A stretch of 24,491 bases of DNA from a plasmid: sequence record NC_017345.1. One strand, 5' to 3'. Made by a program: the position numbers and the translations under genes. A model generated the notes under the pieces. It did no database searches, had not been told where the DNA came from, and saw nothing but the letters and a program-made list of their open reading frames with translations. Below, piece by piece: positions 554 through 21,386 of the stretch; position 1 is the first letter of the stretch; each line of letters begins with the position of its first letter.

Positions 554-1384
554 AAAAATTAAATCTCTCAAAAAGTTTTCTCGGCATAAAAGTACCTCTA
601 ACTTTTATACATAAAGTCATGAGCATAAGGGAAAGTGCCACCACTTTTATATTTTGGCAGACCCATAACGTGGTGAACTCGGCAGTGCCGAGTTATTTTT
701 CCTAGAAAAAAAGTGACATCACTTTTTTAACTCATATGTATAAAAACCATAACGTTATGTATACATACAGGTTACGTATACATATACTTTATGTATATAA
801 AACATACACAAAAGACATGCATCATACACATCAATTTTTTTAAAAATACATGTCTTTTTGATATATATTTTTTTTTTGCGTTTTAAGAGGTCATTTAGAG
901 CATTCTCTAATTTTGAGTACAAAAATACGTAATATAAAAAAATCGTCCTTTTAAAACCTTTTTAGGACATTTTAAACACATTTTTATGATTTGGATCAAT
1001 GTAGAATAAATGTCATAAACGTATAGAAAAAATACGTCGTCATTTCTAAGTACAGATAAATTTCTGATGCAGTACTAAATTATGGGGAAACCTACCTGTA
1101 AAAAATAAAAAGATTACTATATTTTAATTTTATTTTTTCTGTTCGTTTTTTCGACACCAGGACGGGCGATTTTTACTTACTGCCCATTTACATGCAAATT
1201 TAAAAATTAGCAATAAATCGTTCCGAATTTGCATTTTAAATGGGCAAACGTGCCGTTTGATCACATAGTTCGTGTAGCGACAAAAAGAGTATAACGAAAG
1301 TATAATAAGCGTATAAAAAAAGTGTAATGATAGAAAATAGCATTATACTTTTTTAGTCGTTCATCGCTCATCAGAACAACAAAT

Positions 1385-1458
1385 AAATTTTTAAGAAATA
1401 AATTTTGAGAGTTGACCACCCACGTTCTCCGTAAACTACAAATGTGGGTGGTCAACTC
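1385..1458. terminator. perfect 22-bp inverted repeat hairpin (ttttgagagttgaccacccacg / cgtgggtggtcaactctcaaaa) followed by T-run; probable bidirectional terminator downstream of the pC194-type rep remnant
   Basis: Read directly: 22-nt arms, ~17-nt loop, AT-rich flanks. Confidence 0.6.
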
Positions 1459-1479
1459 TCAAAATATTTTTATATTTTT

Positions 1480-1583
1480 TTATTGTTCTTCTTCGGTAAG
1501 TTCGTGAAGTTCACTTGCCAGGTACTCTTTCTGATTCCAAATATAATAAATTTGGTAAAGGTATTCAGTTGGATCGATTTCTT
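1480..1583 (-). pseudogene. rep: 3' fragment of a pC194-type RC-plasmid Rep (…QNQEIDPTEYLYQIYYIWNQKEYLASELHELTEEEQ*), truncated by IS257
   Basis: Minus-strand translation ending at TAA (1480-1482) resembles the C-terminus of pC194 Rep (…EIDPTEYIYQIFYIWKQKEYLASELYDLTEQEK…) from memory. The reading frame runs straight into the IS257 inverted repeat at 1584. Confidence 0.6.
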
Positions 1584-2377
1584 GGTTCTGTTGCAAAATT
1601 AAAAAATAAGTGTCTAACCTTATGTTTAAAATAATACTTCGTATTAACTAGCTAGCATGATGCTAATTACACGGCATGGCGAAAACCCGTAGATCTGAAG
1701 AGATCTGCGGTTCTTTTTATATAGTCCATAAATACATTCAATGCCTTTGATCGTATTCTTTGCCGTATTGATACTTTGATAACTTATTTTCCTTACTTTG
1801 ATATGACGATGATCTTGTTCAATGAGATTATTTAAATATTTAGAGTTACAATGACAGTTGGGGGTAAGTTTAAAATCTTTAATCACTTTGGACATTGCCA
1901 CCTTCGTTGAAGGGGCTTGGTTTGTAATTATCATTTGAGGTTTGCCAAATTGTTTAATAAGACGTTTAATAAACGTATATGCTGAGTGATTATCTCGTTT
2001 CTTACGTAACGAAATATCTAGTGTATGGCCATCTGCATCAATAGCGCGATATAAATAATTCCATTGCCCTTTAATTTTGATATACGTCTCATCTATATGC
2101 CATTTATAATAAGCTTGCTTATTCTTTTTCTTCCAAATTTGATACAAAATAGGAGCATATTCCTGTACCCATCGATAAATTGTTGAATGATGAACATAGA
2201 TGCCTCGTTCTCTCAATATTTCAGATATATCACGATAACTTAATGCATATCTTAGATAGTAGCCAACGGCTACAGTAATGACATCTTTGTCAAATTGCTT
2301 ATATCTGAAATAATTCATCCTCTGCACCTCATTTTTTGTTGACTATTATACTATATTTCTAACTTTGCAACAGAACC
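1584..2377 (-). mobile_element. IS257: IS257/IS431 (IS6 family), complete 794-bp copy with terminal inverted repeats ggttctgttgcaaaat … actttgcaacagaacc
   Basis: Terminal IRs are readable at 1584-1599 and 2362-2377. The internal 224-aa DDE transposase is IS257/IS431-like. Confidence 0.9.
1644..2318 (-). CDS. tnp: IS257/IS431 transposase (224 aa from MNYFRYKQF…; the track ORF has a 3-aa upstream extension)
   Basis: Protein MNYFRYKQFDKDVITVAVGYYLRY…FSPCRVISIMLAS matches the remembered IS257/IS431 transposase. Confidence 0.9.
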   Translation of the reverse strand: MNYFRYKQFDKDVITVAVGYYLRYALSYRDISEILRERGIYVHHSTIYRWVQEYAPILYQIWKKKNKQAYYKWHIDETYIKIKGQWNYLYRAIDADGHTLDISLRKKRDNHSAYTFIKRLIKQFGKPQMIITNQAPSTKVAMSKVIKDFKLTPNCHCNSKYLNNLIEQDHRHIKVRKISYQSINTAKNTIKGIECIYGLYKKNRRSLQIYGFSPCRVISIMLAS

Positions 2378-3266
2378 TAATGTAAGCTATGCAGATATAC
2401 TTGAAATTTTAAAAATAAAAAAGGCTTATAACGTAAAACAATGTGGTAACGTCTTAGAATTCAAGCCGACCGATGAAGGTTATTTGAAATTACATAAGAC
2501 GTGGTTTTGTAAATCAAAGCTATGTCCAGTTTGTAATTGGAGGCGTGCTATGAAAAATAGTTATCAAGCTCAAAAAGTGATTGAAGAAGTAATTAAGGAA
2601 AAGCCAAAAGCACGTTGGTTGTTTTTAACACTTTCAACAAAAAATGCGATAGATGGAGATACTTTAGAACAAAGTTTGAAGCATCTAACTAAAGCATTTG
2701 ATAGGGTGAGTAGATATAAAAAGGTTAAACAAAATCTTGTTGGATTTATGCGTTCAACAGAAGTTACCGTTAATAAAAATGACGGTAGTTATAATCAGCA
2801 TATGCACGTTTTGTTATGTGTTGAAAATGCATATTTTAGAAAAAAAGAGAATTATATAACTCAAGAAGAATGGGTTAATTTATGGCAAAAAGCATTACAA
2901 GTTGATTATCGACCTGTTGTAAATATTAAAGCAATTAAACCTAATCAAAAAGGCGATAAAGATATTGAATCGGCAATCAAAGAGACATCAAAATATTCGG
3001 TTAAGTCATCTGATTTTTTAACTGACGATGACGAAAAAAATCAAGAAATTGTAAGTGATTTAGAAAAAGGTTTATATCGAAAACGTATGTTAAGTTATGG
3101 TGGATTGCTTAAACAAAAGCATAAAATTTTAAACTTAGACGATGCCGAAGATGGTAATTTAATTAATACAAGTGATGAAGATAAAATAACAGATGAAGAA
3201 GCAAAAGCACATTCAATTACGGCAATTTGGAATTTTGAAAAGCAAAATTATTATTTAAGACATTAG
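2378..3266 (+). pseudogene. rep: pUB110-type (Rep_1 family) RC-plasmid replication initiator, C-terminal ~295 codons. Its N-terminus is removed by the IS257 insertion; the frame is open from the IS boundary.
   Basis: LHKTWFCKSKLCPVCNWRRAMK, …YNQHMHVLLCV…, …LSYGGLLKQ…WNFEKQNYYLRH match pUB110 RepU motifs (RVWFCKSRLCPMCNWRRAMK; HMHVLVCV; active Tyr region). In-frame continuity to 2379 with no start codon. Confidence 0.85.
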
Positions 3267-3812
3267 TGATGACTGATGTCTTTTTTATTGATTTTTTGTA
3301 AAAAAGTACTGTCTTATTTTTGTGACAAATGCTGTATGTAGTGTCACAAAAGTGTGACACTACAGCTTTTTATGATATCACTTTAAAATTACTTAAAACC
3401 CTTGGAATGTCTGGCTTTGCCAGACCTATTATTTTTGAATGATAGCAAATTCTCCTTATGCTCTTACGGAGTTCTTAGAGAAAAATTGAAATTTCTTGAT
3501 TTTTGATAAAAACGCCCTGCAGGAATTTAGAAAAACATGGGGAAGTTTTAAAAGATTTTATGCTCATTTTTAATTTGCATTTAAATGGGCAGTGTTAAAA
3601 AATTATTCACTGGTTTTGCTGAAATTTTTGTTTGTGAAATTACCATATATTTATTTGGCTCATATTTGCGTTTTAAGAGCTTGTATAGATTTTTAAGTAG
3701 AAAACTATAAGATTTACCTCTAAATCTTTAAAATACCCTCTTAAAATTCAAAATAAAGGTGTTTATAATTTGAATAAGTCCTGAGATAAAGTTTTTTAAA
3801 AGGAGTGGTTTT

Positions 3813-3977
3813 TTGAAGAGGTCTTTATTTATTTTACAAATTATTCTTGGTATTTTTTTATTGTTTTTTATTTATAAGCAAATGAATCAAAATCATTTAG
3901 ATACTTGGTTTATTCTTTATACAGTCTTTTTTATATTTTTTTCATCGTGGTTTGATAAACATTATAAAAAAAGTTAG
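3813..3977 (+). CDS. small hydrophobic protein (54 aa, TTG start, RBS aaggag 8 nt upstream)
   Basis: ORF read by hand (LKRSLFILQIILGIFLLFFIYKQMNQNHLDTWFILYTVFFIFFSSWFDKHYKKS*); good Shine-Dalgarno; below the 60-aa track threshold. Confidence 0.35.
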   Translation: MKRSLFILQIILGIFLLFFIYKQMNQNHLDTWFILYTVFFIFFSSWFDKHYKKS

Positions 3978-3984
3978 ACGACGC

Positions 3985-4125
3985 ATTTATGCCGAGAAAA
4001 TTTATTGATGTTGAGAAGAACCCTTAACTAAACTTGCAGACGAATGTCGGCATAGCGTGAGCTATTAAGCCGACCATTCGACAAGTTTTGGGATTGTTAA
4101 GGGTTCCGAGGTTCAACGACAATAA
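3985..4125 (+). promoter_or_regulatory. ssoA: ssoA-type single-strand origin (palA-like): long imperfect hairpin with CS-6 (TAGCGT) in the loop
   Basis: gaacccttaac…ttgcagacgaatgtcggc ATAGCGTgagctattaa gccgaccattcgacaag…gttaagggttc. The stem/loop architecture and the CS-6 hexamer are characteristic of ssoA in pT181/pC194/pE194-family plasmids. Confidence 0.6.
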
Positions 4126-4146
4126 AGCAATTGGAATAAAATACAC

Positions 4147-4309
4147 AGGCATTGAATGTATTTATGGACTATATAAAAAGAACCGCAGATCTCTTCAGAT
4201 CTACGGGTTTTCGCCATGCCGTGTAATTAGCATCATGCTAGCTAGTTAATACAAAGTATTACTTTAAACATAAGGTTAGACACTTATTTTTTAACTTTGC
4301 AACAGAACC
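4147..4309 (+). mobile_element. IS257: truncated IS257 remnant (~163 bp: the transposase-3' end plus terminal IR), inverted relative to the full copy
   Basis: Reverse complement of 1584-1745 almost base-for-base, ending with actttgcaacagaacc at 4294-4309. Confidence 0.85.
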
Positions 4310-4469
4310 TTACATTATCTATTTTCTTTTCTCTCCATGGGCGTTGTTTCCCACTTTTCGTCATATCTTTTAACGTTTTATTATCTTGATTTTCGGTAAT
4401 ACTTCTAGTAGTATTATATTGCATATAAAAAGAACTCCAGTATTGATTTAGATTAGACACCTTAATCAT
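4310..4469 (-). pseudogene. rep: N-terminal fragment of a pUB110-type Rep (MIKVSNLNQYWSSFYMQYNTTRSITENQDNKTLKDMTKSGKQRPWREKKIDNV-), fused into the IS257 end
   Basis: KSGKQRPWREKKIDNV matches pUB110 RepU KSGKVRPWREKKIANV. Joining this fragment to 2379 (NVSYADILEILKIKK…) after removing one copy of the 8-bp duplication restores a colinear Rep. Confidence 0.8.
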
Positions 4470-4559
4470 ATTACTGGAGTTTTTTTATGTCAAATTTTAT
4501 TTTCCCCAAGCAAAACAGTATGAAACGCCGTCATATCAACGCTTCAAAAGGATTTTAGA

Positions 4560-4600
4560 AAAGAACGTTATTTCTATATAGTATCAAGACAAGAAGAAAC
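4560..4600 (-). promoter_or_regulatory. candidate double-strand origin (dso) nick region of the pC194/pUB110 family (…TTCTTCTTGTCTTGATACTATA… on the minus strand), upstream of the rep N-terminal fragment
   Basis: Contains the conserved CTTGATA nick-site core in the expected position and orientation upstream of rep. Confidence 0.5.
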
Positions 4601-4605
4601 TCGTT

Positions 4606-4953
4606 TCAAAAACCCTCATGATTTTTAGAGAAAAACTCTCTTATTTCATCGTCTTTAATAAAATAATATGCCATCTTTCCATCTTTATAAAAATCAAGTA
4701 CCTCATTTTTATATAAAAGCCTTAAATGATGTGAAGTTGAAGCAATACTCATTTTCAATATCAAAGAAATATCACAAACACACAACTCATCTTCTTTAAT
4801 CAAAGATAATATGATTTTCAATTTCTTCTCATCACAAATTTTTTCTAAAATGTTAAGTAATTTCTTAGATTTATCATCTTCTAAAAAACTTAAAGCATTG
4901 TTAACTTTATCCTCATGTACACAGATCACATCACAAGTATTTTCATAACTCAT
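4606..4953 (-). CDS. cadX: CadX, ArsR/SmtB-family regulator of the cadDX cassette (115 aa)
   Basis: ELCVCDISLILKMSIASTSHHLRLLYK metal-binding/HTH signature; the full protein matches remembered CadX of staphylococcal cadDX plasmids. Confidence 0.9.
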   Translation of the reverse strand: MSYENTCDVICVHEDKVNNALSFLEDDKSKKLLNILEKICDEKKLKIILSLIKEDELCVCDISLILKMSIASTSHHLRLLYKNEVLDFYKDGKMAYYFIKDDEIREFFSKNHEGF

Positions 4954-4971
4954 ATAAAATCACACCCTAAA

Positions 4972-5589
4972 TTAAAATATAAATCCTAAAATTGTTTGAA
5001 TAGTGTCATTTTCAATAATAATAAATAAACCTAAAGCTATATAAATAATAGCCATAATCCAACGACTAAATTTCTCAACAATTTCTCCAATTCCTGGGAT
5101 ATTAGCTAATTTTTGTGCAGTAAACACCAAGAAGAAAATTAAAATTAAAAAGACAAACAGAGTAAGTAATAAATTAGTAACACTTAATGTCACAAAATAC
5201 GGAACAAATAAACCAATATTATCGGCGCCACAACTTGCTATCGTAACAATTGCAACCGTACCAACTAATTTAGACAATCCTTTTTCATTCAATTCTTTTT
5301 TAGCTCTCTTTTCTCCTTCACAATCATCATAAATAGTCACTTTAATTCCAAGATAAATTGGTATTAAACCCAATAAACCTAATATCCACTTTTCTGGAAC
5401 ATAATTTAATACAAAAGCTAAAAACAAACTAACTAATATTAAAATAATAGACCCTAAATATTGACCAACATAAATATCTCTATATTCTTTTCTAGTCTTT
5501 GCTCTAGCAAAAAATATTAATAAAATTACTAATAAATCAACTGCTGTAGCAATATAAAGAACAGCAGCAGCAACAACCGTTTGAATCAT
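4972..5589 (-). CDS. cadD: CadD cadmium resistance transporter (205 aa)
   Basis: 205-aa polytopic protein MIQTVVAAAVLYIATAVDLLVILLIFFARAK… matching the CadD family; located immediately upstream of cadX as in known cadDX operons. Confidence 0.9.
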   Translation of the reverse strand: MIQTVVAAAVLYIATAVDLLVILLIFFARAKTRKEYRDIYVGQYLGSIILILVSLFLAFVLNYVPEKWILGLLGLIPIYLGIKVTIYDDCEGEKRAKKELNEKGLSKLVGTVAIVTIASCGADNIGLFVPYFVTLSVTNLLLTLFVFLILIFFLVFTAQKLANIPGIGEIVEKFSRWIMAIIYIALGLFIIIENDTIQTILGFIF

Positions 5590-5664
5590 ACATACACCTC
5601 ATTCAAAAATATTTTTGAATGTATTATAACTTATATTTTTAAATAATCATAGGTGCTTTATTCC

Positions 5665-5810
5665 AATTGCTTTATTGACGTTGAGCCTCGGAACCCTTAA
5701 CAATCCCAAAACTTGTCGAATGGTCGGCTTAATAGCTCACGCTATGCCGACATTCGTCTGCAAGTTTAGTTAAGGGTTCTTCTCAACATCAATAAATTTT
5801 CTCGGCATAA
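5665..5810 (-). promoter_or_regulatory. ssoA: second ssoA-type single-strand origin, inverted copy of 3985-4125
   Basis: Reverse complement of the 3985-4125 element with the same stem and TAGCGT loop (gcatagcgtgagctattaagccgacc read on the minus strand). Confidence 0.6.
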
Positions 5811-5822
5811 ATACGATGTTCC

Positions 5823-5972
5823 TTATTTATCCTCATAAAAAACAATAGCTGAAATATATAACCAATTACTGCGTGTTTGAATTTCTAATACATGAATATC
5901 ATTCTTTAAAAACCTATTAACTTGTTTATCTAATTGACGATGAGTAAAAGTAGCGAAAGTTTTAATCTTCAT
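5823..5972 (-). CDS. small hypothetical protein (49 aa MKIKTFATFTHRQLDKQVNRFLKNDIHVLEIQTRSNWLYISAIVFYEDK) with a strong RBS (aaggagag); the 66-aa track ORF is an unlikely GTG extension
   Basis: ATG preceded at optimal spacing by GGAGAG. The upstream GTG start of the 66-aa version has no Shine-Dalgarno. Confidence 0.45.
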   Translation of the reverse strand: MKIKTFATFTHRQLDKQVNRFLKNDIHVLEIQTRSNWLYISAIVFYEDK

Positions 5973-6519
5973 GATATCTCTCCTTTTATAAAAAATAGCA
6001 ATCCTTATTACAATATTAAACACTTTTATTTTGAATTTTAAGAGGCATTTTGAAGACTTAGAGGCAAATCATATAGGTTTTGTACTTAAAAATCTATACA
6101 GTCTCTTAAAACGCAAATATGAGCCAAATAAATATATGCTAATTTCACAAACAAAAATTTCAGCAAAATCAGTGACTAATTTTTTAGATACTGCCCATTT
6201 ACATGCAAATTTAAAAATTAGCATAAAATACTTTAAAACTTCCCCATGTTTTTCTAAATTCCTGCAGGGCTTTTCTTATCAAAAACTTAGAAATTTTAAT
6301 TTAACTCTAAAATCTCCGTAAGAGCATAAGGGAAATTTGCTATCATTCAAAAATGATAGATCTGGCAAGGCCAGACATTCCAAGGGTTTTAAGTAATTTT
6401 AAAGTGATATCATACAAAGCTGTAGTGTCACACTTTTGTGACACTACATACAGCATTTGTCACAAAAATAAGACAGCACTTTTTTACAGAAAAACAATAA
6501 AAAAAGACATCAGTTATCA

Positions 6520-6805
6520 CTAATGTCTTAAATAATAATTTTGCTTTTCGAAATTCCAAATTGCCGTAATTGAATGTGCTTTTGCTTCTTCGTCTGTCGT
6601 TTTATCTTCATCACTTGTATTAATCAAATTACCATCTTCGGCATCGTCTAAGTTTAAAATTTTATGCTTTTGTTTAAGCAATCCACCATAACTTAACATA
6701 CGTTTTCGATACAAACCTTTTTCTAAATCACTTACAATTTCTTGATTTTTTTCGTCGTCATCAGTTAAAAAGTCAGATGATTTAACGGAATATTTTGATG
6801 TCTCT
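6520..6805 (-). pseudogene. rep: second, diverged copy of the pUB110-type rep 3' end (C-terminal ~95 codons only), inverted relative to 2378-3266
   Basis: Reverse complement is ~95-97% identical to 2980-3266 (SNPs give ITDEE->TTDEE and a TAG->TAA stop). Homology stops near 6805 next to the theta-rep stop codon. Confidence 0.8.
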
Positions 6806-6829
6806 TCGAGTGTTATAAAATCATTTGAA

Positions 6830-7804
6830 TTATTGATTAAAGATATTATATTGTTTCATGTTTTTACGGCGCATATAAAGGGCATGTGTTTCTTCAAGTT
6901 CAGTTAGAATTGTTTGCATTAAATAAGCTTGCATTGAATTGATTGTTTCCTTTTGGCCTTTAACTCCCCTATCATGTATAGCTTTTTTAAGTCTTTTTAA
7001 AGAAGTTAATATTTCATCCTCAATGTCCTCTAACATGTAATGCATATCTTCATGCCTTGAATTAAATGATTTTTTTGCTTTAAGAATAACAGCCTTTATG
7101 ATTTCTAAATCTCTATAATCATATTTTAATAAATAATTAGTTAGTTGTTCTGGGAATTCTTGCAATAGCATTTCTTTATCATCAAAATTATGTGTAAATT
7201 GATTTGAATGATTACTAATTTCATTTTTGTACTTTATATCATTCAAGTCATTCATATCATTATTCTCAGTATCATTAAAGTCAATGTCATTAAAGTCAGT
7301 ATCATTAGTGTTCGATTTTCGAACTTCTGGACGTTCGATTTTCGAACTTCTGGACGTTCGATTTTCGAACTTCTGGACGTTCGATTTTCGAACTTCCTTC
7401 TCGCCGTAAGGTTCAACATCGTTTTCTTCTTTTTCTATTTTGTAAATATCACGTTCTGTGACAATAGGTTTCATTAAATATAGAATATTTGGTTTATTTA
7501 AACCACGTCGTTTTTGAATGAGTAGACCATCGTTTTCTAACCCTTTTTTTATTTTTGTTAACTTTTCTTTTTTACAATTTAAGATTTCCATTAGCTTTTC
7601 ATTTGAATAAACAAAGTAAATGTTACCATCTTCATCAACCCAGCTATTTTTAATAGATAAATTTAAGCGATCACGTAAGATAGCATAGGCTATTTTCATA
7701 TCATTAGTTAGATTTTTATAATTTTCACTGGTAAAGAATACTTTAGGGATTTGATAAAATCTTTCTTTGTAATTTTCTTGCACTGTAAAATATTGATTTT
7801 GCAT
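6830..7804 (-). CDS. rep: RepA_N-family theta-replication initiator (324 aa), pSK1/pSK41-type
   Basis: MQNQYFTVQENYKERFYQIPKVFFTSENYKNLTNDMKIAYAILRDRLNLS… is the remembered N-terminus of staphylococcal multiresistance-plasmid Rep. The central D/N-rich region holds the iterons. Confidence 0.9.
   Translation of the reverse strand: MQNQYFTVQENYKERFYQIPKVFFTSENYKNLTNDMKIAYAILRDRLNLSIKNSWVDEDGNIYFVYSNEKLMEILNCKKEKLTKIKKGLENDGLLIQKRRGLNKPNILYLMKPIVTERDIYKIEKEENDVEPYGEKEVRKSNVQKFENRTSRSSKIERPEVRKSNTNDTDFNDIDFNDTENNDMNDLNDIKYKNEISNHSNQFTHNFDDKEMLLQEFPEQLTNYLLKYDYRDLEIIKAVILKAKKSFNSRHEDMHYMLEDIEDEILTSLKRLKKAIHDRGVKGQKETINSMQAYLMQTILTELEETHALYMRRKNMKQYNIFNQ
7310..7397. repeat. 3.8 tandem copies of a 23-bp iteron (gttcgattttcgaacttctggac), each with an internal gttcga-ttt-tcgaac palindrome, inside the rep coding sequence
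   Basis: Read directly. An in-gene origin/Rep-box location is characteristic of RepA_N plasmids. Confidence 0.75.
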
Positions 7805-10396: not shown

Positions 10397-11023
10397 TTAA
10401 TTTCTAAGCTCAGAAATATTGACTATGACATCAAATCGTTTCGCAAGATCTAAATCATGTGTTACGACAATCATAGTTTTATTTTCATCAAGTAGATTTA
10501 ATAATAAATCAATGACTATTTTTCCGTTTTTCGTATCTAATGACCCAGTAGGTTCATCAGCTAAAATGATTTTCGGATCTTTTAATATAAGTCTCGCCAA
10601 CGCAACTCTTTGCTGTTCACCACCACTTAGAGAATTAACAATCCTCTTGATATCTAAATCTAGGCTGACCTTTTTTAATACTTCTTTCTTTAAGTTCATA
10701 TTATCTTTTTTATTCTTTTTGAACTTTAGGGCTAAATCTAAATTTTGACTGATTGTTTGATTTTCAAGTAAAGCAAAATTTTGAAACAAATACCCTAACG
10801 TATATCTATAAAAATCGACTTTCTTTTTTAGTAACTTATCTTCAATATATATGCTCCCTTGTGATACATCTTCGAACCCAGCGATTATGTTAAGTAAAGT
10901 AGATTTTCCAGCGCCACTTTCTCCAACTAAAGCATATGATTTTCCTTTTTCAAAATTAAAATTACATTCGTCTAAAATGTTTTTATTACCTTTTTTTACA
11001 AAAACATTTTCAAGTTTTATCAC
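10397..11023 (-). CDS. ABC transporter ATP-binding protein (208 aa)
   Basis: Walker A GESGAGKST, signature LSGGEQQRVALAR, Walker B ILADEPTGSLD. Confidence 0.9.
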   Translation of the reverse strand: MIKLENVFVKKGNKNILDECNFNFEKGKSYALVGESGAGKSTLLNIIAGFEDVSQGSIYIEDKLLKKKVDFYRYTLGYLFQNFALLENQTISQNLDLALKFKKNKKDNMNLKKEVLKKVSLDLDIKRIVNSLSGGEQQRVALARLILKDPKIILADEPTGSLDTKNGKIVIDLLLNLLDENKTMIVVTHDLDLAKRFDVIVNISELRN

Positions 11024-11034
11024 TATCGGTCACC

Positions 11035-11346
11035 TCATTTTAAAAAGCTAGGAATATCTTTTGTAATGTATTCTATCGAACGCACATATTTCCCTTTATG
11101 ATTTACTTTCACATATTCTTTTGTAGGATCATAACCTAAAAAATCCAATTTATAACTCTTTTTTTCTCCATTTTTAGAGTATACAGTTATATTTCTATAG
11201 TCCTGGGTGTCTTTTGGAACTTTGGCATAAGATACTTTTTCTTTTAACAGTGGGTTAAAACGATCTAAATGCTCGTTTCTAACCAATAACAGACTAAGTA
11301 TGATGATTAATAGTACACTTGTTACAATAATTAAAGTTCTTTTCAT
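11035..11346 (-). CDS. small signal-anchored protein (103 aa), possibly YxeA/DUF1093-like accessory to the ABC transporter
   Basis: N-terminal TM/signal anchor, then a hydrophilic K/Y-rich domain; in an operon between the permease and the ATPase. The family assignment is from memory only. Confidence 0.45.
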   Translation of the reverse strand: MKRTLIIVTSVLLIIILSLLLVRNEHLDRFNPLLKEKVSYAKVPKDTQDYRNITVYSKNGEKKSYKLDFLGYDPTKEYVKVNHKGKYVRSIEYITKDIPSFLK

Positions 11347-11349
11347 TGT

Positions 11350-13284
11350 TTAAATCTCCCTCATTAAATCTTTAAAGTATTTTTCAAGATATTTAATATA
11401 AGCAATTTGAAGTAAATATTGAATAATAGCAATAGACACTATTATGAGTAGTAATATCTTTGAACAAAATAAAATATGCGTAGTGTAAGCTAACATAATA
11501 GAAAGTAAGATAGAAATCGTTAAATAACGTACATTACTGCTGAATAATGAATAACCATGAATTTTTCTTAATAATAGTTGCTTTCTATTCCAACTAAAAT
11601 ATTGAATTGTTTCAAATACAGTAGCTATCAAAAGAATGAAAACGTTAATTATGATAGTAACTATTGTTATTATCATTTTTGTTTTCGTTTCATTTATTTC
11701 ATTTAGCACAGAATCCTTGTAATTAGTTATACCGCTAATTTCTTCTGCTAGGTGATTATCTTTAAGCAACTGTTTAAGTGTATCTAAATCTTTAAATAGA
11801 TATCCACCTTGAGAAACAGCAGCTAAATAAAAATCTCCTGTTAAATCGTCAGGCGTCAACAACAGTACTATTGGAGAATCTAGATACCCAAATTTCAAAT
11901 TAGTTGTGCGATCAAAAGAAAAAACAGATACGTTTTTTGACAGTACTTGCACATCTACTTTTTTGTTTTGTTGCTTTTGAAAGTCAATCCATCCTTGGTG
12001 ATTTTTTTGAATTTCAGATTTTTGAGATTGTAACCTTGGAGGAATAAACACGTTTATTTTATCCGAATGATTGGCAATCATTTTAAAATCAGGATTTATA
12101 TTTTTATAGAAATTCAGAAAATTGTTATTGATAAAAAAGACATTGCCATTTTCAGGAATGTAATTATTTTTATCGGGATTGGCTATATTATTATTCTTTA
12201 AAAGCAATCCTCCAAGTTGTTCGCTTTTCTTAATTAAGTTGTATACATTAGTTTCTAAAATTTGTTTTTCTTCTAAGTTTCTAATATTAGGAGAAATCTC
12301 TAACGTATAGTAATTCTCTAGCTTTTGCCAGATTTTTTCAGAGTCATATATATTTTTTAACTTCGTATAAGCATTTAAATTTTGTGCAAGTAAAAAAGAT
12401 AGTATTAGAACCATGGTACATTTGGTGAAGGTACCCATAAATATTGAAAACTTATATCCTTTTTTCCCTTTTAAGGTTAATGGAATATTTAACTTCAAAA
12501 GAAGACTATACGAAATCAGCCACAACAATGTAGTAATACAAGCAAAAACAAAAAGCAACACGATAAACCTACGAACAAACATTAAGAAATCCAATTCTAA
12601 ATTGGCTATATGAATGATTAATATATTAGCAATAAAGAAAATGGAGGTAAGTATTAGCCAATAGATGATTTTTAGATGAATATTATGAAAAATAATGCGT
12701 GTAGTTGAAAAGCCATGTAGCTTTTGAACAGCATAAAATTTTAAATGATGTCCTCTGTCATATAAGTAATACAAAAGATATAATACTCCTAAGAATATGA
12801 AAGGCACTAATAAATCATTATCTATGACTAATTCAAAAAATAATATGTTTCTATTTATGTATTCAACTTCAGATGTTAAACCAGCTTTTTTTAATTCACT
12901 CGTAAGCTCTTCCACATTGAAATGTTCGCCAATAATATAATACTTTCCTTTTATCTCTCTGTTTAATAAATCTGATGGAGTTAAAAGTGATGTTTTATTA
13001 CGTATAAGGTCAGAATTATTTCGTTTTGAGTTGAAAACAAAAAATTCTTGTTTATTATCAAAATCTTTAACGGACCTAATTATTTGTATATTTTGATTTT
13101 TGGCGCCTGATTCAATGGCATCTAACACTTTTGATTTACTGTTAGATTTATCCCAATTAGAGATTGTTAAAATATTGGAACTTTCAGGTATAATTTCTTC
13201 ACTTTCTTTGAAGAAAAATAAAAATAATAGCCCTGAAATTAATAGTAAAGTACTAAAATCTAAAAATAATTTGAATTTTTTCAT
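11350..13284 (-). CDS. bacteriocin-associated integral membrane protein (644 aa; DUF1430/FtsX-like permease), putative immunity/transport partner of the lactococcin-972-like bacteriocin
   Basis: Large polytopic protein with two TM clusters separated by an extracytoplasmic domain, directly downstream of an Lcn972-family prepeptide and upstream of an ABC ATPase. This matches the lclA-lclB-lclC organisation. Confidence 0.7.
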   Translation of the reverse strand: MKKFKLFLDFSTLLLISGLLFLFFFKESEEIIPESSNILTISNWDKSNSKSKVLDAIESGAKNQNIQIIRSVKDFDNKQEFFVFNSKRNNSDLIRNKTSLLTPSDLLNREIKGKYYIIGEHFNVEELTSELKKAGLTSEVEYINRNILFFELVIDNDLLVPFIFLGVLYLLYYLYDRGHHLKFYAVQKLHGFSTTRIIFHNIHLKIIYWLILTSIFFIANILIIHIANLELDFLMFVRRFIVLLFVFACITTLLWLISYSLLLKLNIPLTLKGKKGYKFSIFMGTFTKCTMVLILSFLLAQNLNAYTKLKNIYDSEKIWQKLENYYTLEISPNIRNLEEKQILETNVYNLIKKSEQLGGLLLKNNNIANPDKNNYIPENGNVFFINNNFLNFYKNINPDFKMIANHSDKINVFIPPRLQSQKSEIQKNHQGWIDFQKQQNKKVDVQVLSKNVSVFSFDRTTNLKFGYLDSPIVLLLTPDDLTGDFYLAAVSQGGYLFKDLDTLKQLLKDNHLAEEISGITNYKDSVLNEINETKTKMIITIVTIIINVFILLIATVFETIQYFSWNRKQLLLRKIHGYSLFSSNVRYLTISILLSIMLAYTTHILFCSKILLLIIVSIAIIQYLLQIAYIKYLEKYFKDLMREI

Positions 13285-13296
13285 ATTGCCTCTTTC

Positions 13297-13340
13297 AAGA
13301 GAATAGACAGAATTAAGTTTACTTAATTCTGTCTATTCTC
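13297..13340 (-). terminator. 19-bp perfect-stem hairpin (gagaatagacagaattaag / cttaattctgtctattctc) between the bacteriocin structural gene and the permease gene; attenuator/terminator
   Basis: Read directly. Typical partial terminator separating a highly expressed bacteriocin gene from immunity/export genes. Confidence 0.6.
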
Positions 13341-13358
13341 CTTAATTAATATATGTAA

Positions 13359-13652
13359 TTAGTGAAGACTATAAAATGTTTTGTTTCCACCCCAAGCCTT
13401 TGGAGCAGATGCCTTAGATTGAACACCAGGTCGAGCAACACCACTAAAAGATGAATACTTTCCTACTGCTGTTGAGCCATGGTTTCTTTTATTATGACTA
13501 TAATGAGACCATACGTAATGTTTTCCAATACCATGACTCCAAACACCACCAGCTAAATGTACTGTTGCAGCTTCAGCTTTATAAGTTACACCTAATAAAG
13601 TGCCGAATAAGATTGTACTAGCAATACAACTAGAAACAAATTTCTTTTTCAT
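13359..13652 (-). CDS. lactococcin 972-family bacteriocin precursor (97 aa; Sec signal peptide cleaved after AEA, mature ~69 aa)
   Basis: Signal peptide MKKKFVSSCIASTILFGTLLGVTYKAEA; mature GGVWSHGIGKHYVWSHYSHNKRNHGSTAVG…KTFYSLH resembles Lcn972 (GTWQHGYGVSSAYSNYHHGSKTHSATVV…FYYNFW). Confidence 0.75.
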   Translation of the reverse strand: MKKKFVSSCIASTILFGTLLGVTYKAEAATVHLAGGVWSHGIGKHYVWSHYSHNKRNHGSTAVGKYSSFSGVARPGVQSKASAPKAWGGNKTFYSLH

Positions 13653-14101: not shown

Positions 14102-14710
14102 TCAAGATAATCCCTTATCATGTTTAATTCTATAAACTGTCTGTCTTGTAATATTAACCTCTTTCGCAATCTTACTAATTGCTTGCCCTTCTTCTAACAT
14201 TTCGACAACTCGATGATAGATAACACGTTTTTGGGGATCTTTCGCGTTCGGTGAATAAAGCAAAGGACGCCCTTTATATACGCCTTTTTCTTTCGCAACT
14301 TGAATCCCTTGCGCTTGTCGACGTTTACTTTCATTTCTCTCTTGTTCTGAAACCATTGCTAATATTTGAATGATTATATCTTTCATAAATTTATCTAATA
14401 ATGGATTGCCAATTACTTCATTCATCATAGGTAAGCTGGTAATCATTAACTGAACGTCTTTTTCTTTTAAATAATTCACAGTTTCAATAATTTCATCATA
14501 GTTACGTCCTAAACGATCAATAGATTCCACAACGAATCGATCTCCCATTCTGACAAAATTGAGAGCTTCTTGAAATATAAATCTATTTTCCACTGACTTT
14601 CCCGACTGTTTCTCTGTAAAGATTTTCTCCACACCAAATGTCTTTAAATTATCCAATTGTCTTTCTAAATTTTGATCTATCGAAGATACTCTTGCATAAC
14701 CTATAATCAT
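14102..14710 (-). CDS. sin: Sin serine recombinase/resolvase (202 aa)
   Basis: [17 protein letters not shown]…[21 protein letters not shown] matches remembered Sin of staphylococcal beta-lactamase plasmids. Confidence 0.9.
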
Positions 14711-15095
14711 TCATTTTCACTCCATAATTAATATACACCCTAATCATACATTTAAGTTACTATAAATTCAATAACTTATTTTGTGTGATTAGGGTGTCAC
14801 TTTGCTTGATATATGAGAATTATTTAACCTTATAAATGAGAAAAAAGCAACGCACTTTAAATAAGATACGTTGCTTTTTCGATTGATGAACACCTATAAT
14901 TAAACTATTCATCTATTATTTATGATTTTTTGTATATACAATATTTCTAGTTTGTTAAAGAGAATTAAGAAAATAAATCTCGAAAATAATAGAGGGAAAA
15001 TCAGTTTTTGATATCAAAATTATACATGTCAACGATAATACAAAATATAATACAAAATATAAGATGTTATCAGTATTTATTATGCATTTAGAATA

Positions 15096-16047
<952 letters not shown>

Positions 16048-17805
16048 ATGGCTAAGTTATTAATAATGAGCATAGTAAGCTTTTGTTTTATATTTCTATT
16101 GTTATTATTTTTTAGGTACATATTAAAACGCTATTTTAATTATATGTTAAATTATAAAGTTTGGTATCTAACTCTTCTTGCAGGATTAATTCCTTTCATT
16201 CCTATTAAATTCTCTCTTTTTAAATTTAATAATGTGAATAATCAAGCGCCCACAGTTGAAAGTAAGTCACACGACTTGAACCATAACATAAATACCACCA
16301 AACCTATTCAAGAGTTCACAACAGATATCCATAAGTTTAATTGGGATTCAATTGATAATATCTGCACAGTTATTTGGATAGTTTTAGTTATTATTTTAAG
16401 TTTTAAATTTTTGAAAGCCTTATTATATCTTAAATATTTAAAGAAACAGTCACTTTATCTAAACGAAAATGAAAAAAATAAAATAGATACGATACTTTTC
16501 AACCATCAATATAAAAAAAATATTGTGATTCGAAAAGCAGAGACTATTCAATCTCCAATAACTTTTTGGTATGGGAAATATATTATTTTGATTCCTAGTT
16601 CATATTTTAAAAGTGTAATTGACAAAAGACTAAAATATATAATATTGCATGAATATGCTCATGCTAAAAATAGAGATACTTTACATTTAATTATCTTTAA
16701 TATCTTCTCTATTATTATGAGTTACAATCCATTAGTACATATTGTAAAAAGAAAGATAATTCATGACAATGAAGTAGAAGCCGATAGATTTGTCCTTAAT
16801 AATATTAACAAAAATGAATTTAAAACTTATGCGGAATCTATTATGGACTCCGTATTAAATGTTCCATTTTTTAATAAAAATATATTAAGCCATTCATTTA
16901 ATGGTAAAAAGTCATTACTCAAAAGAAGATTAATTAATATAAAAGAAGCCAATCTGAAAAAACAGTCCAAATTAATTCTAATTTTTATTTGTATTTTTAC
17001 TTTTTTGCTCATGGTAATTCAAAGCCAGTTTTTGATGGGGCAATCCATAACTGATTATAATTATAAAAAGCCCTTACACAACGATTACCAAATTTTAGAT
17101 AAAAGTAAAATTTTTGGTTCAAATAGTGGATCTTTCGTCATGTACAGCATGAAGAAAGACAAATACTATATTTATAACGAAAAAGAAAGTAGAAAAAGGT
17201 ATTCTCCTAATTCAACTTATAAAATTTATTTAGCTATGTTTGGACTTGACCGACATATTATAAATGATGAAAATTCACGTATGTCATGGAATCATAAGCA
17301 TTACCCTTTTGATGCTTGGAATAAGGAACAAGATTTAAATACAGCAATGCAAAATTCAGTTAATTGGTACTTCGAACGTATTAGCGATCAAATACCAAAG
17401 AACTATACTGCGACTCAACTCAAGCAATTAAATTATGGTAATAAAAATTTGGGAAGTTATAAAAGCTATTGGATGGAAGATAGTTTGAAAATATCTAATC
17501 TTGAACAAGTAATAGTTTTTAAAAATATGATGGAACAAAATAACCATTTTAGTAAAAAAGCAAAGAATCAATTATCTTCTTCATTATTGATTAAGAAAAA
17601 TGAAAAGTATGAACTGTATGGGAAAACAGGTACAGGTATAGTAAACGGGAAGTATAATAATGGGTGGTTTGTAGGTTACGTAATTACAAATCATGATAAG
17701 TATTATTTTGCTACACATTTATCAGATGGAAAGCCATCTGGGAAAAATGCTGAATTAATCAGTGAAAAAATATTAAAAGAAATGGGTGTTTTAAATGGCC
17801 AATAA
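16048..17805 (+). CDS. blaR1: BlaR1 beta-lactam sensor/signal transducer (585 aa from [10 protein letters not shown]…)
   Basis: [10 protein letters not shown] zinc-protease motif and C-terminal penicillin-binding sensor domain (…KTGTG…); overlaps blaI by 11 nt. Confidence 0.95.
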
Positions 17806-18175
17806 GCAAGTTGAAATATCTATGGCTGAATGGGATGTTATGAATATAATATGGGGTAAAAAATCAGTATCAGCTAATGAAATTGTAGTTGAAATTCAAA
17901 AATATAAAGAAGTTAGCGATAAAACGATTAGAACATTAATCACAAGACTATATAAAAAAGAGATTATAAAACGATACAAATCAGAGAATATTTATTTTTA
18001 CTCATCAAATATTAAAGAAGACGATATTAAAATGAAAACTGCTAAAACCTTTCTTAATAAACTGTATGGAGGGGACATGAAAAGTTTAGTGCTGAATTTT
18101 GCGAAAAATGAAGAATTAAATAACAAAGAAATTGAAGAATTGCGAGACATTTTAAATGATATTAGTAAAAAGTAA
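17795..18175 (+). CDS. blaI: BlaI penicillinase repressor (126 aa)
   Basis: [35 protein letters not shown]… winged-helix BlaI/MecI family. Confidence 0.95.
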
Positions 18176-18273
18176 TTAGAGATATGTTTCAAACATAATA
18201 CATATGTAAACTATGCTTGACTCTTATTAAATTAGTTTTGTTAATAACATTTAAAATATATTATTAAAGATGA

Positions 18274-18307
18274 GAGTGTACAGAAAATAACCATTTTCTG
18301 TACACTC
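18274..18307. promoter_or_regulatory. 30-34-bp perfect palindrome gagtgtacagaaaat-aacc-attttctgtacactc + T-run: the blaI terminator and/or crossover site I of the Tn552 resL
   Basis: Read directly. It has the size and 12-14-bp arm architecture of a serine-recombinase site I, and sits ~130 bp upstream of binL. Confidence 0.45.
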
Positions 18308-18438
18308 TTCTTTTATATCTAAATAAGTAAGAATTACATAGGATTATGTGTTCAAAAACCCAACAAAAAATCTATGTTCATAAAAGACCTTGTAATTAAG
18401 TTATGGTACACTGAAGATGTATATAGGAGGTTTGTATT

Positions 18439-19032
18439 TTGAAAATAGGTTATGCAAGAGTTTCAACTGGATTACAAAATTTAAATTTACAGGAGGATCG
18501 ATTAAATACATATGGTTGTGAAAAGATATTTAATGACCATATGAGTGGTTCAAAAAGTAAAAGACCTGGTTTAGATAAAGCAATTGAATTTGCGAGGTCG
18601 GGAGATACGATTGTTGTTTGGAGATTAGATAGATTGGGACGTAATATGGAAGATTTAATCACATTAGTCAATGAACTTAATGAGAGAGGCGTGAGTTTCC
18701 ATAGCTTAGAAGAAAATATAACCATGGATAAATCAAGTTCTACAGGACAATTATTATTTCATTTATTCGCAGCATTTGCAGAATTTGAACGTAATTTAAT
18801 TTTAGAGCGTTCTTCAGCTGGCCGAATTGCAGCACGTGCTAGAGGCCGATATGGAGGCAGACCAGAGAAATTAAATCAAAAAGATTTAAACTTACTTAAG
18901 ACACTTTATGATAATGGCACGCCAATTAAGACAATTGCAGAACAGTGGCATGTTTCACGTACAACAATTTATCGTTACCTCAATAAATTGGAGGACAAGG
19001 AAGATGAAAAACAAGGAGAAGTATCTAACTAA
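18439..19032 (+). CDS. binL: BinL serine recombinase/resolvase of Tn552 (197 aa)
   Basis: MKIGYARVSTGLQNLNLQ… catalytic Ser region and C-terminal HTH; overlaps the p480 start. Confidence 0.9.
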   Translation: MKIGYARVSTGLQNLNLQEDRLNTYGCEKIFNDHMSGSKSKRPGLDKAIEFARSGDTIVVWRLDRLGRNMEDLITLVNELNERGVSFHSLEENITMDKSSSTGQLLFHLFAAFAEFERNLILERSSAGRIAARARGRYGGRPEKLNQKDLNLLKTLYDNGTPIKTIAEQWHVSRTTIYRYLNKLEDKEDEKQGEVSN

Positions 19033-20446
19033 TTTTTCTGAAGCCAAACGTAAAAAAGCTATTCAAAAGTACAATATTATAAAACCTTTTATCCTAGGCG
19101 AACAATCTTTATCAAGTATTTCTAAAAGTAAAGGGATTGCGTTAAGCACCCTTTATAGGTGGAATAAGTCGTATAAAGAACAAGGACTTAAAGGACTAAT
19201 CTATGCGACAAGAGCTGATAAAGGAACACGTAAAATAGAACCAATGATAATTGATGAAATTGAACGCCTTGCGCTTATGAATAAAAGAAATAGTATAGCC
19301 ACAATTCATAGGAAAATCACTAATTACTGTAAAGAAAATAATTTTGATATACCAAGTTATAAACAAATTTATAGTGTTATTAAAGCGATGCCTAAGTCTG
19401 TTATTGATTTCTCTCATCAGGGTGAAAAATACTATCAAAATAAGTACGATTTAATACAAATTAGAGAATCCTCGAGACCCAATGAAATATGGCAAGCAGA
19501 CCATACTTTGCTAGATATCTTTATATTAGACCAAAAAGGTAATATCAATAGACCATGGCTAACTATTATTATGGATGACTATAGTCGTGCAATTGCAGGC
19601 TATTTCTTAAGTTTTGATGCCCCCAATGCTCAAAACACAGCATTAACACTACACCAAGCAATATGGAATAAAAATGATACCAATTGGCCAGTGTGTGGTA
19701 TACCCGAAAAATTCTACACAGATCATGGAAGTGACTTTACTTCACATCATATGGAACAAGTCGCTATTGATTTGAAAATTAACTTGATGTTTTCGAAAGT
19801 TGGTGTTCCTCGTGGTCGTGGAAAAATAGAACGATTTTTTCAGACAGTTAATCAAACTTTCTTAGAACAACTGCCTGGATATATAAACAATAACGATACT
19901 CCTAGTAATCTAATAAATTTTCACAATTTTGAAGAAAAATTACGTTACTTTTTAATTGAAGATTATAATCAAAAAGAACATAGTACTATTCATACCACGC
20001 CTATCAGTCGTTGGAATAGTAATCACTTTTTCCCTAATATGCCAAGTAGCTTAGAACAACTTGATTTATTATTGTTGGAAATACCTAAATCTAGAAAAGT
20101 TCATTCAGATGGCATTCATTTTCAAGGTTTTCGATACAGTAATACTAATCTAGCAGCTTATGTAGGTGAATATGTACTGATTCGTTATAACCCAAATGAT
20201 ATGGCTGAAATACGTGTGTTTTATAGAGATGAATTTCTTTGTACTGCTATATGTCCAGAAATAGCTGATTACTCCATAGATATAAAAGACATACAGCACG
20301 CTCGTAGTCAGAGAAGAAAACACTTAAAACAAAATATTGCTAGTCCAAGTACCACGGAATTAATTAAGGAAGAAAAAAATTGTGGTTATTCACCTCAAGA
20401 AACGACTAAAAACGTCAAAAAATTAAAGAGGTATCGTAATGACTAA
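19004..20446 (+). CDS. Tn552 transposase p480 (480 aa, DDE; start MKNKEKY with RBS ggagg)
   Basis: Length exactly 480 aa from the ATG at 19004. Integrase-type DDE core (…WQADHT…DHGSDF…E…). The track ORF is an in-frame upstream extension. Confidence 0.9.
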   Translation: MKNKEKYLTNFSEAKRKKAIQKYNIIKPFILGEQSLSSISKSKGIALSTLYRWNKSYKEQGLKGLIYATRADKGTRKIEPMIIDEIERLALMNKRNSIATIHRKITNYCKENNFDIPSYKQIYSVIKAMPKSVIDFSHQGEKYYQNKYDLIQIRESSRPNEIWQADHTLLDIFILDQKGNINRPWLTIIMDDYSRAIAGYFLSFDAPNAQNTALTLHQAIWNKNDTNWPVCGIPEKFYTDHGSDFTSHHMEQVAIDLKINLMFSKVGVPRGRGKIERFFQTVNQTFLEQLPGYINNNDTPSNLINFHNFEEKLRYFLIEDYNQKEHSTIHTTPISRWNSNHFFPNMPSSLEQLDLLLLEIPKSRKVHSDGIHFQGFRYSNTNLAAYVGEYVLIRYNPNDMAEIRVFYRDEFLCTAICPEIADYSIDIKDIQHARSQRRKHLKQNIASPSTTELIKEEKNCGYSPQETTKNVKKLKRYRND

Positions 20447-21254
20447 AAATCAAAATTTCATTGAAACGAAAGAGTATAAACGCTTTGCTGAATTTTGTGA
20501 TGCTTGTATTAAATATCAGTATATTGGTATATGTTATGGTCAACCTGGTGTCGGAAAAACTTTATCGTCTAGGTATTACACAAATTGGGATACTATTGAA
20601 AAACAAGTTAACCATAGAGGTTGGGAAGATTTAGCTAGTAAAACGACCGATGACATACTATCGGTGGATAAAATATTTTATACTGCACCAGCAGAAAAAC
20701 AAACTAAATTAAGGAATGATTTATATAGTATTACTGCAAGCATTGATTTGGGTCAAAAATTGCATGTTGTAAATAAGTATGGACATGAACATAGTAAACA
20801 TTATAGTGATATGTTTAAATATATTGATTTAATTATAGTAGATGAGATTGATCGCCTTAAAGTGCAACATTTAGAGCAATTAAGAGCTATTTATGATGAA
20901 CATAATTTAGCAATGATATTTATTGGTATGCCAGGCATAGAGAAAAAACTATCTCGTTATCCTCAACTATATTCGCGTATAGGTTTTGCGCATGAATTTG
21001 ATAATCTAAGTAAAGATGAGACGCATCATATATTAGAATATAAGTGGCAAGATTTAGGATTTGATTTAAAACTCGAAGACTTTACTGATTATGAGGCAAT
21101 AACGACGATTATTAAAATTACAAAAGGGAATTTTAGGCTGATTCATCGTTTATTTGCGCAGATAGACAGAATTATGGATATAAATGGTTTAGATAAAATA
21201 AGTACAGAAGTTGTAGAAACAGCTAGAGATAGTTTAGTTATAGGTATTCGATAA
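20439..21254 (+). CDS. Tn552 p271 ATP-binding transposition protein (271 aa, AAA+/MuB-TnsC-like)
   Basis: Walker A GQPGVGKT, Walker B IIVDEIDRL; overlaps the p480 stop by 8 nt. Confidence 0.9.
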   Translation: MTKNQNFIETKEYKRFAEFCDACIKYQYIGICYGQPGVGKTLSSRYYTNWDTIEKQVNHRGWEDLASKTTDDILSVDKIFYTAPAEKQTKLRNDLYSITASIDLGQKLHVVNKYGHEHSKHYSDMFKYIDLIIVDEIDRLKVQHLEQLRAIYDEHNLAMIFIGMPGIEKKLSRYPQLYSRIGFAHEFDNLSKDETHHILEYKWQDLGFDLKLEDFTDYEAITTIIKITKGNFRLIHRLFAQIDRIMDINGLDKISTEVVETARDSLVIGIR

Positions 21255-21386
21255 TAGAAAAAGCAACGCATTTTAATATAATGCGTTGCTTTTCTCATTT
21301 ATTAGGTAAAGTCATTCTCATATATCGAGTAAAGTGACAGATTAGGGTGTACTTAAATAACACAAAAGTAGGTTTAATATAATTAA

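Follow-up and report, generated by a model that had tools for sequence, protein, structure and literature searches.

The 24,491-nucleotide stretch of plasmid DNA analysed here (sequence record NC_017345.1, hereafter the window) comes from a large Staphylococcus aureus resistance plasmid of the RepA_N type, which carries integrated rolling-circle (RC) plasmid DNA and, within it, an RC replication gene (rep) that is split by an insertion sequence (IS) of the IS257 family. The N-terminal fragment (rep-N) and the C-terminal part (rep-C) of this gene lie in opposite orientations, and one complete and one truncated IS copy stand at the breaks (Table 1; IRR and IRL, right and left terminal inverted repeats of the IS; ssoA, a type of single-strand origin; dso, double-strand origin). 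The complete IS is of ~0.8 kb and has short terminal inverted repeats, with GGTTCTGTTGCAAA(A/G)TT at each end; its termini were read directly as GGTTCTGTTGCAAAATT... and ...AACTTTGCAACAGAACC. The transposase, encoded on the minus strand at 1644-2318, matches the IS6 transposase model NCBIfam NF033587 with 239.7 bits (cut-off 125) and Pfam DDE_Tnp_IS240 with 126 bits, and "IS6-like element ISSau6 family transposase" is the name that the Prokaryotic Genome Annotation Pipeline (PGAP) uses in pFORC61_2, a plasmid 99.6% identical. Since the element is only ~83-84% identical at the nucleotide level to the copies annotated as IS257 family in Mammaliicoccus sciuri pNW26-1 and S. saprophyticus pSSP2, it is, as judged by sequence, a member of its own isoform group (ISSau6), for which "IS257" is correct as a family-level label and not sensu stricto.

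Table 1. Integrated RC plasmid DNA and IS junctions in the window
Feature	Position	Strand	Remarks
pC194-type Rep_1 gene, 3' end	1480..1583	-	ends in ...EIDPTEYLYQIYYIWNQKEYLASELHELTEEEQ and stop; broken by IRR end of full IS; "old" flank of full IS
Complete IS257-family (ISSau6-type) IS, 794 bp	1584..2377	-	IRR terminus 1584, IRL terminus 2377
Target-site octamer TAATGTAA	2378..2385	+	adjoins IRL; copy inside the IS bracket
rep C-terminal part	2378..3266	+	codon 36-37 of 331-aa Rep to stop; whole Rep_1 domain; 98-100% identical to pTW20_2/pKH3
rep-downstream region and variable module X	3267..3981	+	colinear with pTW20_2 to ~3756; 54-aa membrane-like open reading frame (ORF) at 3813-3977
ssoA-type single-strand origin, copy A	3982..4143	+	98% complementary to copy B; stops at the break with the IS remnant
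IS remnant, 163 bp of transposase-3' (IRR) end	4147..4309	+	inverted relative to full copy; inner 631 bp and old flank gone
Target-site octamer TTACATTA	4310..4317	+	adjoins IRR; copy outside the bracket
rep N-terminal fragment, MQYNTTRS...REKKIDNV	4310..4424	-	38 codons; start as annotated in pTW20_2, pUSA01 and pFORC61_2
rep promoter/leader and dso	4425..4605	-	homology to pKH18 and to relatives L005 and L006
cadX (4606-4953) and cadD (4972-5589)	4606..5589	-	cargo of integrated cadDX RC plasmid; pKH18-like, 96%
ssoA copy B	5657..5815	-	native linkage to cadD
Module b, rep-downstream region and truncated rep 3' part (6520-6812) of copy B	5816..6812	-	adjoins RepA_N gene

The two octamers next to the rep halves are exact reverse complements of each other, and the chance of such a match at one specified pair of positions, given the AT-rich composition, is about 6-8e-5. 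The IS ends fit a single insertion, as the IRR end points toward rep-N and the IRL end toward rep-C. The remnant differs from the full copy by three mismatches (positions 15, 48 and 57), and 2/163 positions are private to the remnant in comparison with all full copies. On the other side of the full IS, the last 33 codons of a pC194-type rep gene remain, with 74% amino acid and 78% nucleotide identity to pC194 (translation, tblastn/blastn), and this junction (GATTTCTT/GGTTCTG) is common to the window and plasmid pTPS3156.

When the reverse complement of 4310-4469 is joined to 2386-3266, a single open frame (...WREKKIDNVSYADILEILKIKK...) is obtained, and this spliced 346-aa frame matches Pfam Rep_1 (PF01446) over aa 87-342 with 309.5 bits and aligns colinearly with pUB110 RepU at 56% amino acid identity; a longer ORF for rep-N would be possible from 4469. 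The insertion site corresponds to codons 36-38 of the 331-aa Rep and lies N-terminal to the entire Rep_1 domain (aa 72-331). In the free 3-kb S. aureus plasmids pTW20_2, pKH3 and pKH18 the rep gene is uninterrupted, and on pTW20_2 the window pieces map at 1534-106 (rep-C) and 1526-1823 (rep-N) with an overlap at 1526-1534, which on all three plasmids (2155-2163 in pKH18) is made up of the 8-bp octamer and one chance base. An 8-bp target duplication, as is known for the IS6 family, is seen both in the octamers at the two rep junctions and in the 8-bp overlap on the intact rep genes. Moreover, identity of the splice to pTW20_2/pKH3 stays at 98-100% over a stretch that begins ~95 bp upstream of the site and extends >400 bp downstream, and on this comparison the window rep is assigned to the pKH3/pTW20_2/pUSA01 type (rep_cluster_1017 in PLSDB typing), "pUB110-type" being valid at the level of the Pfam family. 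The PGAP annotation of near-identical plasmids has a 303-aa "protein rep" which starts inside the IS left end, reads into rep-C (window 2355-3266) and keeps the whole Rep_1 domain, and it is possible that an IS-rep fusion product is made from 2355-3266. An outward promoter-like match in the IS left end (2287-2314) was no better than chance.

Much of an earlier sequence-only reading of this region has been borne out by these results. The four junctions that it had placed at 1583/1584, 2377/2378, 4146/4147 and 4309/4310 were all recovered when the window was read and the junctions were extracted; a rep gene split by an IS257-family element at a site with an 8-bp duplication is confirmed by the octamers and the in-frame splice, and the relative inversion of the halves by self-comparison; colinearity with RepU after splicing over one octamer, as well as a pC194-type rep 3' end at the left flank of the full IS, were likewise found. 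Its labels, IS257 and pUB110-type, were right at the family level but can be narrowed to an ISSau6-type element and a pKH3/pTW20_2-type rep.

Self-comparison and mapping on the free plasmids divide the region into two partial RC units that are mutually inverted. Unit A (2378-4143, sense) consists of the octamer-to-stop portion of rep, the downstream region, module X and an ssoA-type hairpin, while unit B (4310-6812, antisense) consists of the octamer, rep-N, the promoter and dso, cadX, cadD, ssoA, a variable module, the downstream region and a truncated rep 3' part, which borders on the RepA_N gene (6830-7804). An inverted repeat of ~93% complementarity has its arms at 2974-3705 and 6077-6812. 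The hairpins at 3982-4143 and 5657-5815 are presumably ssoA origins, a label taken from established knowledge of RC plasmids; the hairpin of copy A has a folding energy of -32 kcal/mol (z = -7.3), and a TAGCGT motif was read in its sequence. The motif CTTGATAC at 4581-4588 on the minus strand we take to be the dso nick site (CTTGATA-type), from knowledge of the pC194/pUB110 family. The region has what is expected of the Rep_1 family, a nick-type motif upstream of rep and ssoA hairpins, with function assigned from family knowledge. In addition, the module slot between the downstream region and ssoA differs between the units (3757-3981 with the 54-aa membrane-like ORF, and 5816-6025 with an ORF of ~49-66 aa), and pKH18 and pTPS3156 have further module variants, so the slot is a swappable one in these plasmids. 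Homology of plasmids L009 and L010 of coagulase-negative staphylococci (CoNS) to the window ends at 4567-4577, a few bp from CTTGATAC, hinting at an end made at the RC nick site.

The whole arrangement was found in 96 PLSDB records at 95-99.9% identity, and the IS/octamer/rep-C junction in 114, pTW20_1 of strain TW20 among them. With its IS copies and with inverted repeats of 160-730 bp, the region could in principle mislead an assembly, the failure that the sequence-only reading had itself named; however, ~100 complete S. aureus plasmids, each assembled independently, have these junctions, and an artefact is therefore practically excluded. Strain TW20 carries the split, inverted rep on pTW20_1 (NC_017352) together with an intact, free 3-kb plasmid, pTW20_2 (NC_017332), whose rep is 98-100% identical, and this co-residence would give an opportunity for ongoing gene conversion between the two plasmids. 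As well, 20-bp direct repeats, aatttgcat(t)ttaaatgggca, are present at 1226-1246 and 3572-3592, and exactly window 1247-3571 is absent between these repeats in pBU108b (pUSA300HOUMR-like), which keeps the 163-bp IS remnant and rep-N, lacks the rep-C partner and looks like a deletion derivative.

Comparison with more distant relatives indicates which of the units was inverted. In NC_010077 the IRR end of a full IS, here of a third isoform, adjoins TTACATTA-repN-dso, followed by ssoA, the dr/downstream region, a rep 3' part (rep-C') and RepA_N; NC_010077 shares both end junctions of the RepA_N-to-IS block at ~83-87% identity, and its rep-N junction is without a rep-C partner. The CoNS plasmids of S. 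condimenti and S. arlettae show the same RepA_N/rep-C' junction and the same ssoA-cadD-cadX order and orientation, and the RepA_N/rep-C' junction is common to the window, L009 and NC_010077. Because NC_010077 and the CoNS plasmids share junctions and orientation with the window, unit B with rep-N represents the conserved context, and the inverted piece is therefore unit A. In the sequence-only reading the N-terminal half had been inverted and moved ~1.8 kb away, which is not upheld: the N side has stayed in its context, the inverted unit is 2378-4143, and the 1.8 kb are unit A itself, namely rep-C, rep's own downstream DNA and ssoA, colinear with pTW20_2. A further relative, pTPS3156, has a full-length IS (IS2) at the position and in the orientation of the remnant, with its IRL end toward the bracket. 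Its bracket encloses a whole cryptic RC unit (rep-C ... ssoA ... dso, rep-N') that lacks cadDX; cadDX is found on the RepA_N-side unit, and the rep octamer junction of pTPS3156 is in the opposite orientation, with the variant octamer TAATTTAA on both sides.

Read in the RepA_N orientation, the order in the window is ...dso-repN-octamer, then IRR-(IS remnant), the inverted block ssoA-X-downstream-repC-octamer, IRL-IS-IRR and the pC194-type remnant. Two IS copies in inverted orientation (1584-2377 minus, 4147-4309 plus) bracket 2378-4143, which is inverted relative to rep-N, and the target duplication is inverted as well, with one octamer for each IS, at unlike ends (IRL and IRR), one inside and one outside the bracket. 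These features fit a Shapiro-type reaction of the IS on the opposite strand of its own molecule, and we give about an even chance to a history in which one intramolecular replicative transposition "in trans" was followed by truncation of one IS copy. The starting plasmid would have had the RepA_N gene, an adjacent cadDX RC unit continuous with an intact pTW20_2/pKH3-type rep with its downstream region and ssoA, and, farther on, one ISSau6-type element whose IRR end abutted the pC194-type rep remnant. This IS may have replicatively attacked the octamer TAATGTAA in rep codons 36-38, on the same molecule and the opposite strand, and such a reaction would leave a second IS copy in inverted orientation, invert all DNA between the IS and the target (now 2378-4143, with rep-C, the downstream region and ssoA) and set the reverse-complementary octamers inside the bracket by IRL (2378-2385) and outside it by IRR (4310-4317). 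A later deletion would then have taken 631 bp from the new IS copy, together with the DNA between that copy and ssoA, resulting in the 163-bp remnant; the DNA presumed lost between the remnant and ssoA is still found in pTPS3156 as a dso and a second rep-N. As the net effect, the captured RC replicon would be left without an intact rep linked to its origin, while cadDX would stay in place. We infer both this order of events and the origin of the outcomes of the transposition step in a single reaction.

Of the IS copies, the full one keeps its pC194-type flank, while the inner flank of the remnant is deleted and the remnant has two private single-nucleotide polymorphisms (SNPs). pTPS3156, probably an intermediate-like relative, supports it with a full-length IS whose IRL points toward the bracket as the model predicts. 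The earlier interpretation, a cointegration followed by deletion and inversion, is partly supported; neither a cointegration nor a separate insertion, inversion and move would be needed.

Several observations weigh against the single transposition in trans. An untruncated ISSau6 copy next to TTACATTA-repN is present in no PLSDB record, where only other isoforms occur at this place (82-86% identity), and an uninterrupted rep downstream of cadX was not found in PLSDB at ≥99% identity, the best match being 97%. The remnant is 2/163 off all full copies, whereas one replicative event yields identical copies, which points to an old event or else to copies that are not sisters. In pTPS3156 the bracket has direct TAATTTAA repeats and both IRL ends inward, which a single standard reaction does not yield. 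The octamer site is recurrent in other plasmids, and the octamer match, which had been offered as proof that the halves were once contiguous, is real but weaker proof than claimed. Allele typing of the rep halves was uninformative at the site itself, as 130 bp around it are conserved in nearly all alleles; in the allele-informative stretches the distal part of rep-N is L005/L006-like and rep-C is pTW20_2-like, and these differing affinities leave the contiguity of the halves, so far as alleles can tell, not proven. Finally, the same structure results when a simple insertion in rep is followed by recombination of that IS with an inverted copy, and sequence alone cannot separate the two routes.

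In such a two-step route, which gives the proposal of the sequence-only reading a defined mechanism, a simple IS insertion in rep (rep-N/IRR-IS-IRL/rep-C, with direct 8-bp repeats) would have been followed by a RecA-dependent flip against an inverted IS by the pC194-type remnant and by later truncation. Its final geometry is identical to that of the trans product, the 2-SNP difference of the remnant fits non-sister IS copies, and its first step exists in free form as pUSA01::IS257 (NZ_CP147693, 3923 bp; two similar records), in which IS257 is inserted in rep at the same site and in the same orientation with a direct TAATGTAA duplication. However, this free example carries a different isoform (IS257 proper), a direct rep-N/ISSau6/rep-C arrangement is in no large PLSDB plasmid, and one extra event as well as a pre-existing second IS would be required; we consider this route unlikely. 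Somewhat more doubtful is the possibility that the two junctions are not cognate, with rep-N/IRR derived from an old cadDX unit and IRL/rep-C from a separate pTW20_2-like RC::IS unit or event, at a site repeatedly hit or retained. At least three IS257-family isoforms form a junction at this site, in plasmids and species that are unrelated, and in one case the orientation is opposite; the unpartnered rep-N of NC_010077 and the different closest relatives of distal rep-N and rep-C point the same way, and the rep-C unit of pTPS3156 has its own rep-N' with the matching variant octamer. Against this stand the coherent IS ends (IRR at N, IRL at C), the identity of the window octamers although the pTPS3156 allele shows that the octamer varies, and the seamless match of the splice to pTW20_2 on both sides of the site. 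Targeted RC::IS integration, moreover, gives direct IS copies and an IRR at the second rep-N, where pTPS3156 has IRL, and such an integration at an inverted IS was set aside for this reason. The coherent ends and identical octamers nevertheless favour a cognate junction pair.

A classical IS257-flanked cointegrate by itself does not describe the window, whose IS copies and octamers are inverted and not direct. A cointegrate of the whole cadDX RC plasmid, with direct IS copies and direct octamers, might nevertheless have been altered by ssoA-ssoA recombination that flipped the segment with cadDX, rep-N and the IS remnant. The ssoA arms (3982-4140 and 5657-5815, 98%) form the exact boundaries of this segment (4141-5656), a classical cointegrate at this very site is known from M. 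sciuri pNW26-1, where the IS257-family copies are direct, and the module X-ssoA-cadD linkage occurs naturally in CoNS plasmids and, in part, also in a free plasmid of M. sciuri. But the present ssoA-cadD-cadX-dso-repN/IS orientation is that of NC_010077 and the CoNS plasmids, which a flip would have to recreate by coincidence; the rep-C unit of pTPS3156 is complete without cadDX, which lies with the RepA_N-side unit; and the opposite ssoA isomer is in no PLSDB record, window-type records giving ~87% coverage via cross-matching arms. Once NC_010077, the CoNS plasmids and pTPS3156 are taken into account, this cointegrate with inversion is regarded as very improbable.

The recurrence of the rep octamer as a junction could be due to a hot spot, to selection or to the spread of one old RC::IS unit. 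Another recurrent junction is found 14 bp farther into rep-N, immediately before TTCTTTTCTCTCC (~4324 in the window), with an IRR end in S. saprophyticus pSSP2 (2997/2998) and an IRL end in pTPS3156 (7422/7423). Among the pUB110-derived copies in PLSDB there was no recurrent break at the homologous repU site (end points 108, 460, 468, 615 and 660, against an expected 382-390), which indicates that the recurrence is specific to the pKH/pUSA01-type rep. We offer, as a conjecture more likely to fail than to hold, that the octamer at codons 36-38 of this rep type is a preferred or selectively tolerated landing site for the IS257 family, and that an N-truncated Rep expressed from IS-derived signals might sustain an RC::IS plasmid as a translocatable unit which seeds the capture of RC/cadDX DNA. 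With an IS in the octamer, the entire Rep_1 domain lies downstream of the IS left end, so that an N-truncated Rep could keep the plasmid alive. If this were true, the recurrence of the junction across species and IS isoforms would mark a functional hot spot instead of shared descent.

Outside the integrated RC DNA, the window contains several other features. Head-to-tail 23-bp repeats lie at 7310-7396 inside the RepA_N gene; they give perfect matches of 41 nt, spaced by 23, and are iteron- or origin-like. A bacteriocin/immunity cluster at 10397-13652 includes a lactococcin-972-type gene (13359-13652), a DUF1430 membrane protein and an ABC ATPase. A Tn552-like unit (14795-21339) carries blaZ, blaR1, blaI, a bin recombinase and two transposition genes between ~50-bp inverted ends (14795-14844 and 21290-21339), and a second resolvase gene (14102-14710) adjoins it. 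Two adjacent minus-strand ORFs of 363 and 196 aa are present at 21387-23155, the first with a weak RVT_1 match; "RNA-directed DNA polymerase" is annotated here in relatives, and the pair may be a split reverse-transcriptase (defence-type) gene.

Rearrangements of this kind by IS6-family elements are known, and the split inverted rep is a real but ordinary case in an S. aureus plasmid backbone that has been sequenced many times; no new biology follows from it, as both the mechanism and this arrangement are already in the literature and in ~100 deposited plasmids. It does illustrate remodelling by the IS257/IS26 family, in which the replication gene of a captured small plasmid is disabled and its cadmium resistance cargo is kept. 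The mildly unusual point is the reuse of one 8-bp rep site by different IS257-family isoforms, including in a free plasmid, and histories built on a target-site duplication need to be checked for site reuse before junctions are called sisters.

Intramolecular replicative transposition in trans with inversion as its outcome has been described for IS26 of the IS6 family (reviewed in Varani et al. 2021, PMC7986276, Fig. 6), and in S. aureus both an IS257-mediated inversion and reverse-complement target-site duplications have been reported (Baines et al. 2019, PMC6496109). The window resembles the products of this reaction in its inverted IS copies around an inverted segment and its inverted 8-bp duplication. 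In those products each IS copy has one old and one target flank, whereas in the window one copy is cut to 163 bp, its old flank is lost and the copies differ at 2-3/163 positions; the target, moreover, is the rep gene of an integrated RC plasmid. Cointegrates of RC plasmids flanked by IS257 are known as well from staphylococcal multiresistance plasmids and SCCmec (pUB110 in pSK41, pT181 in SCCmec), and later trimming of the RC replication region by intramolecular IS257 events has been described (Kwong et al. 2017, PMC5703833). Like these, the window has RC DNA in a theta plasmid, IS257-family junctions, 8-bp duplications of RC sequence and an inactivated RC rep, but its IS copies and octamers are inverted and not direct. 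The free plasmid pUSA01::IS257 differs in its direct repeats, adjacent halves and IS257 proper in place of an ISSau6-type element, and agrees with the window in octamer, in rep family and in how the IS is oriented with respect to rep. The small RC plasmids of rep_cluster_1017 (pTW20_2, pKH3 and pKH18), although free, intact and without IS, share with the window rep (98-100% over rep-C), dso and ssoA, and pKH18 also shares cadD-cadX in the same order.

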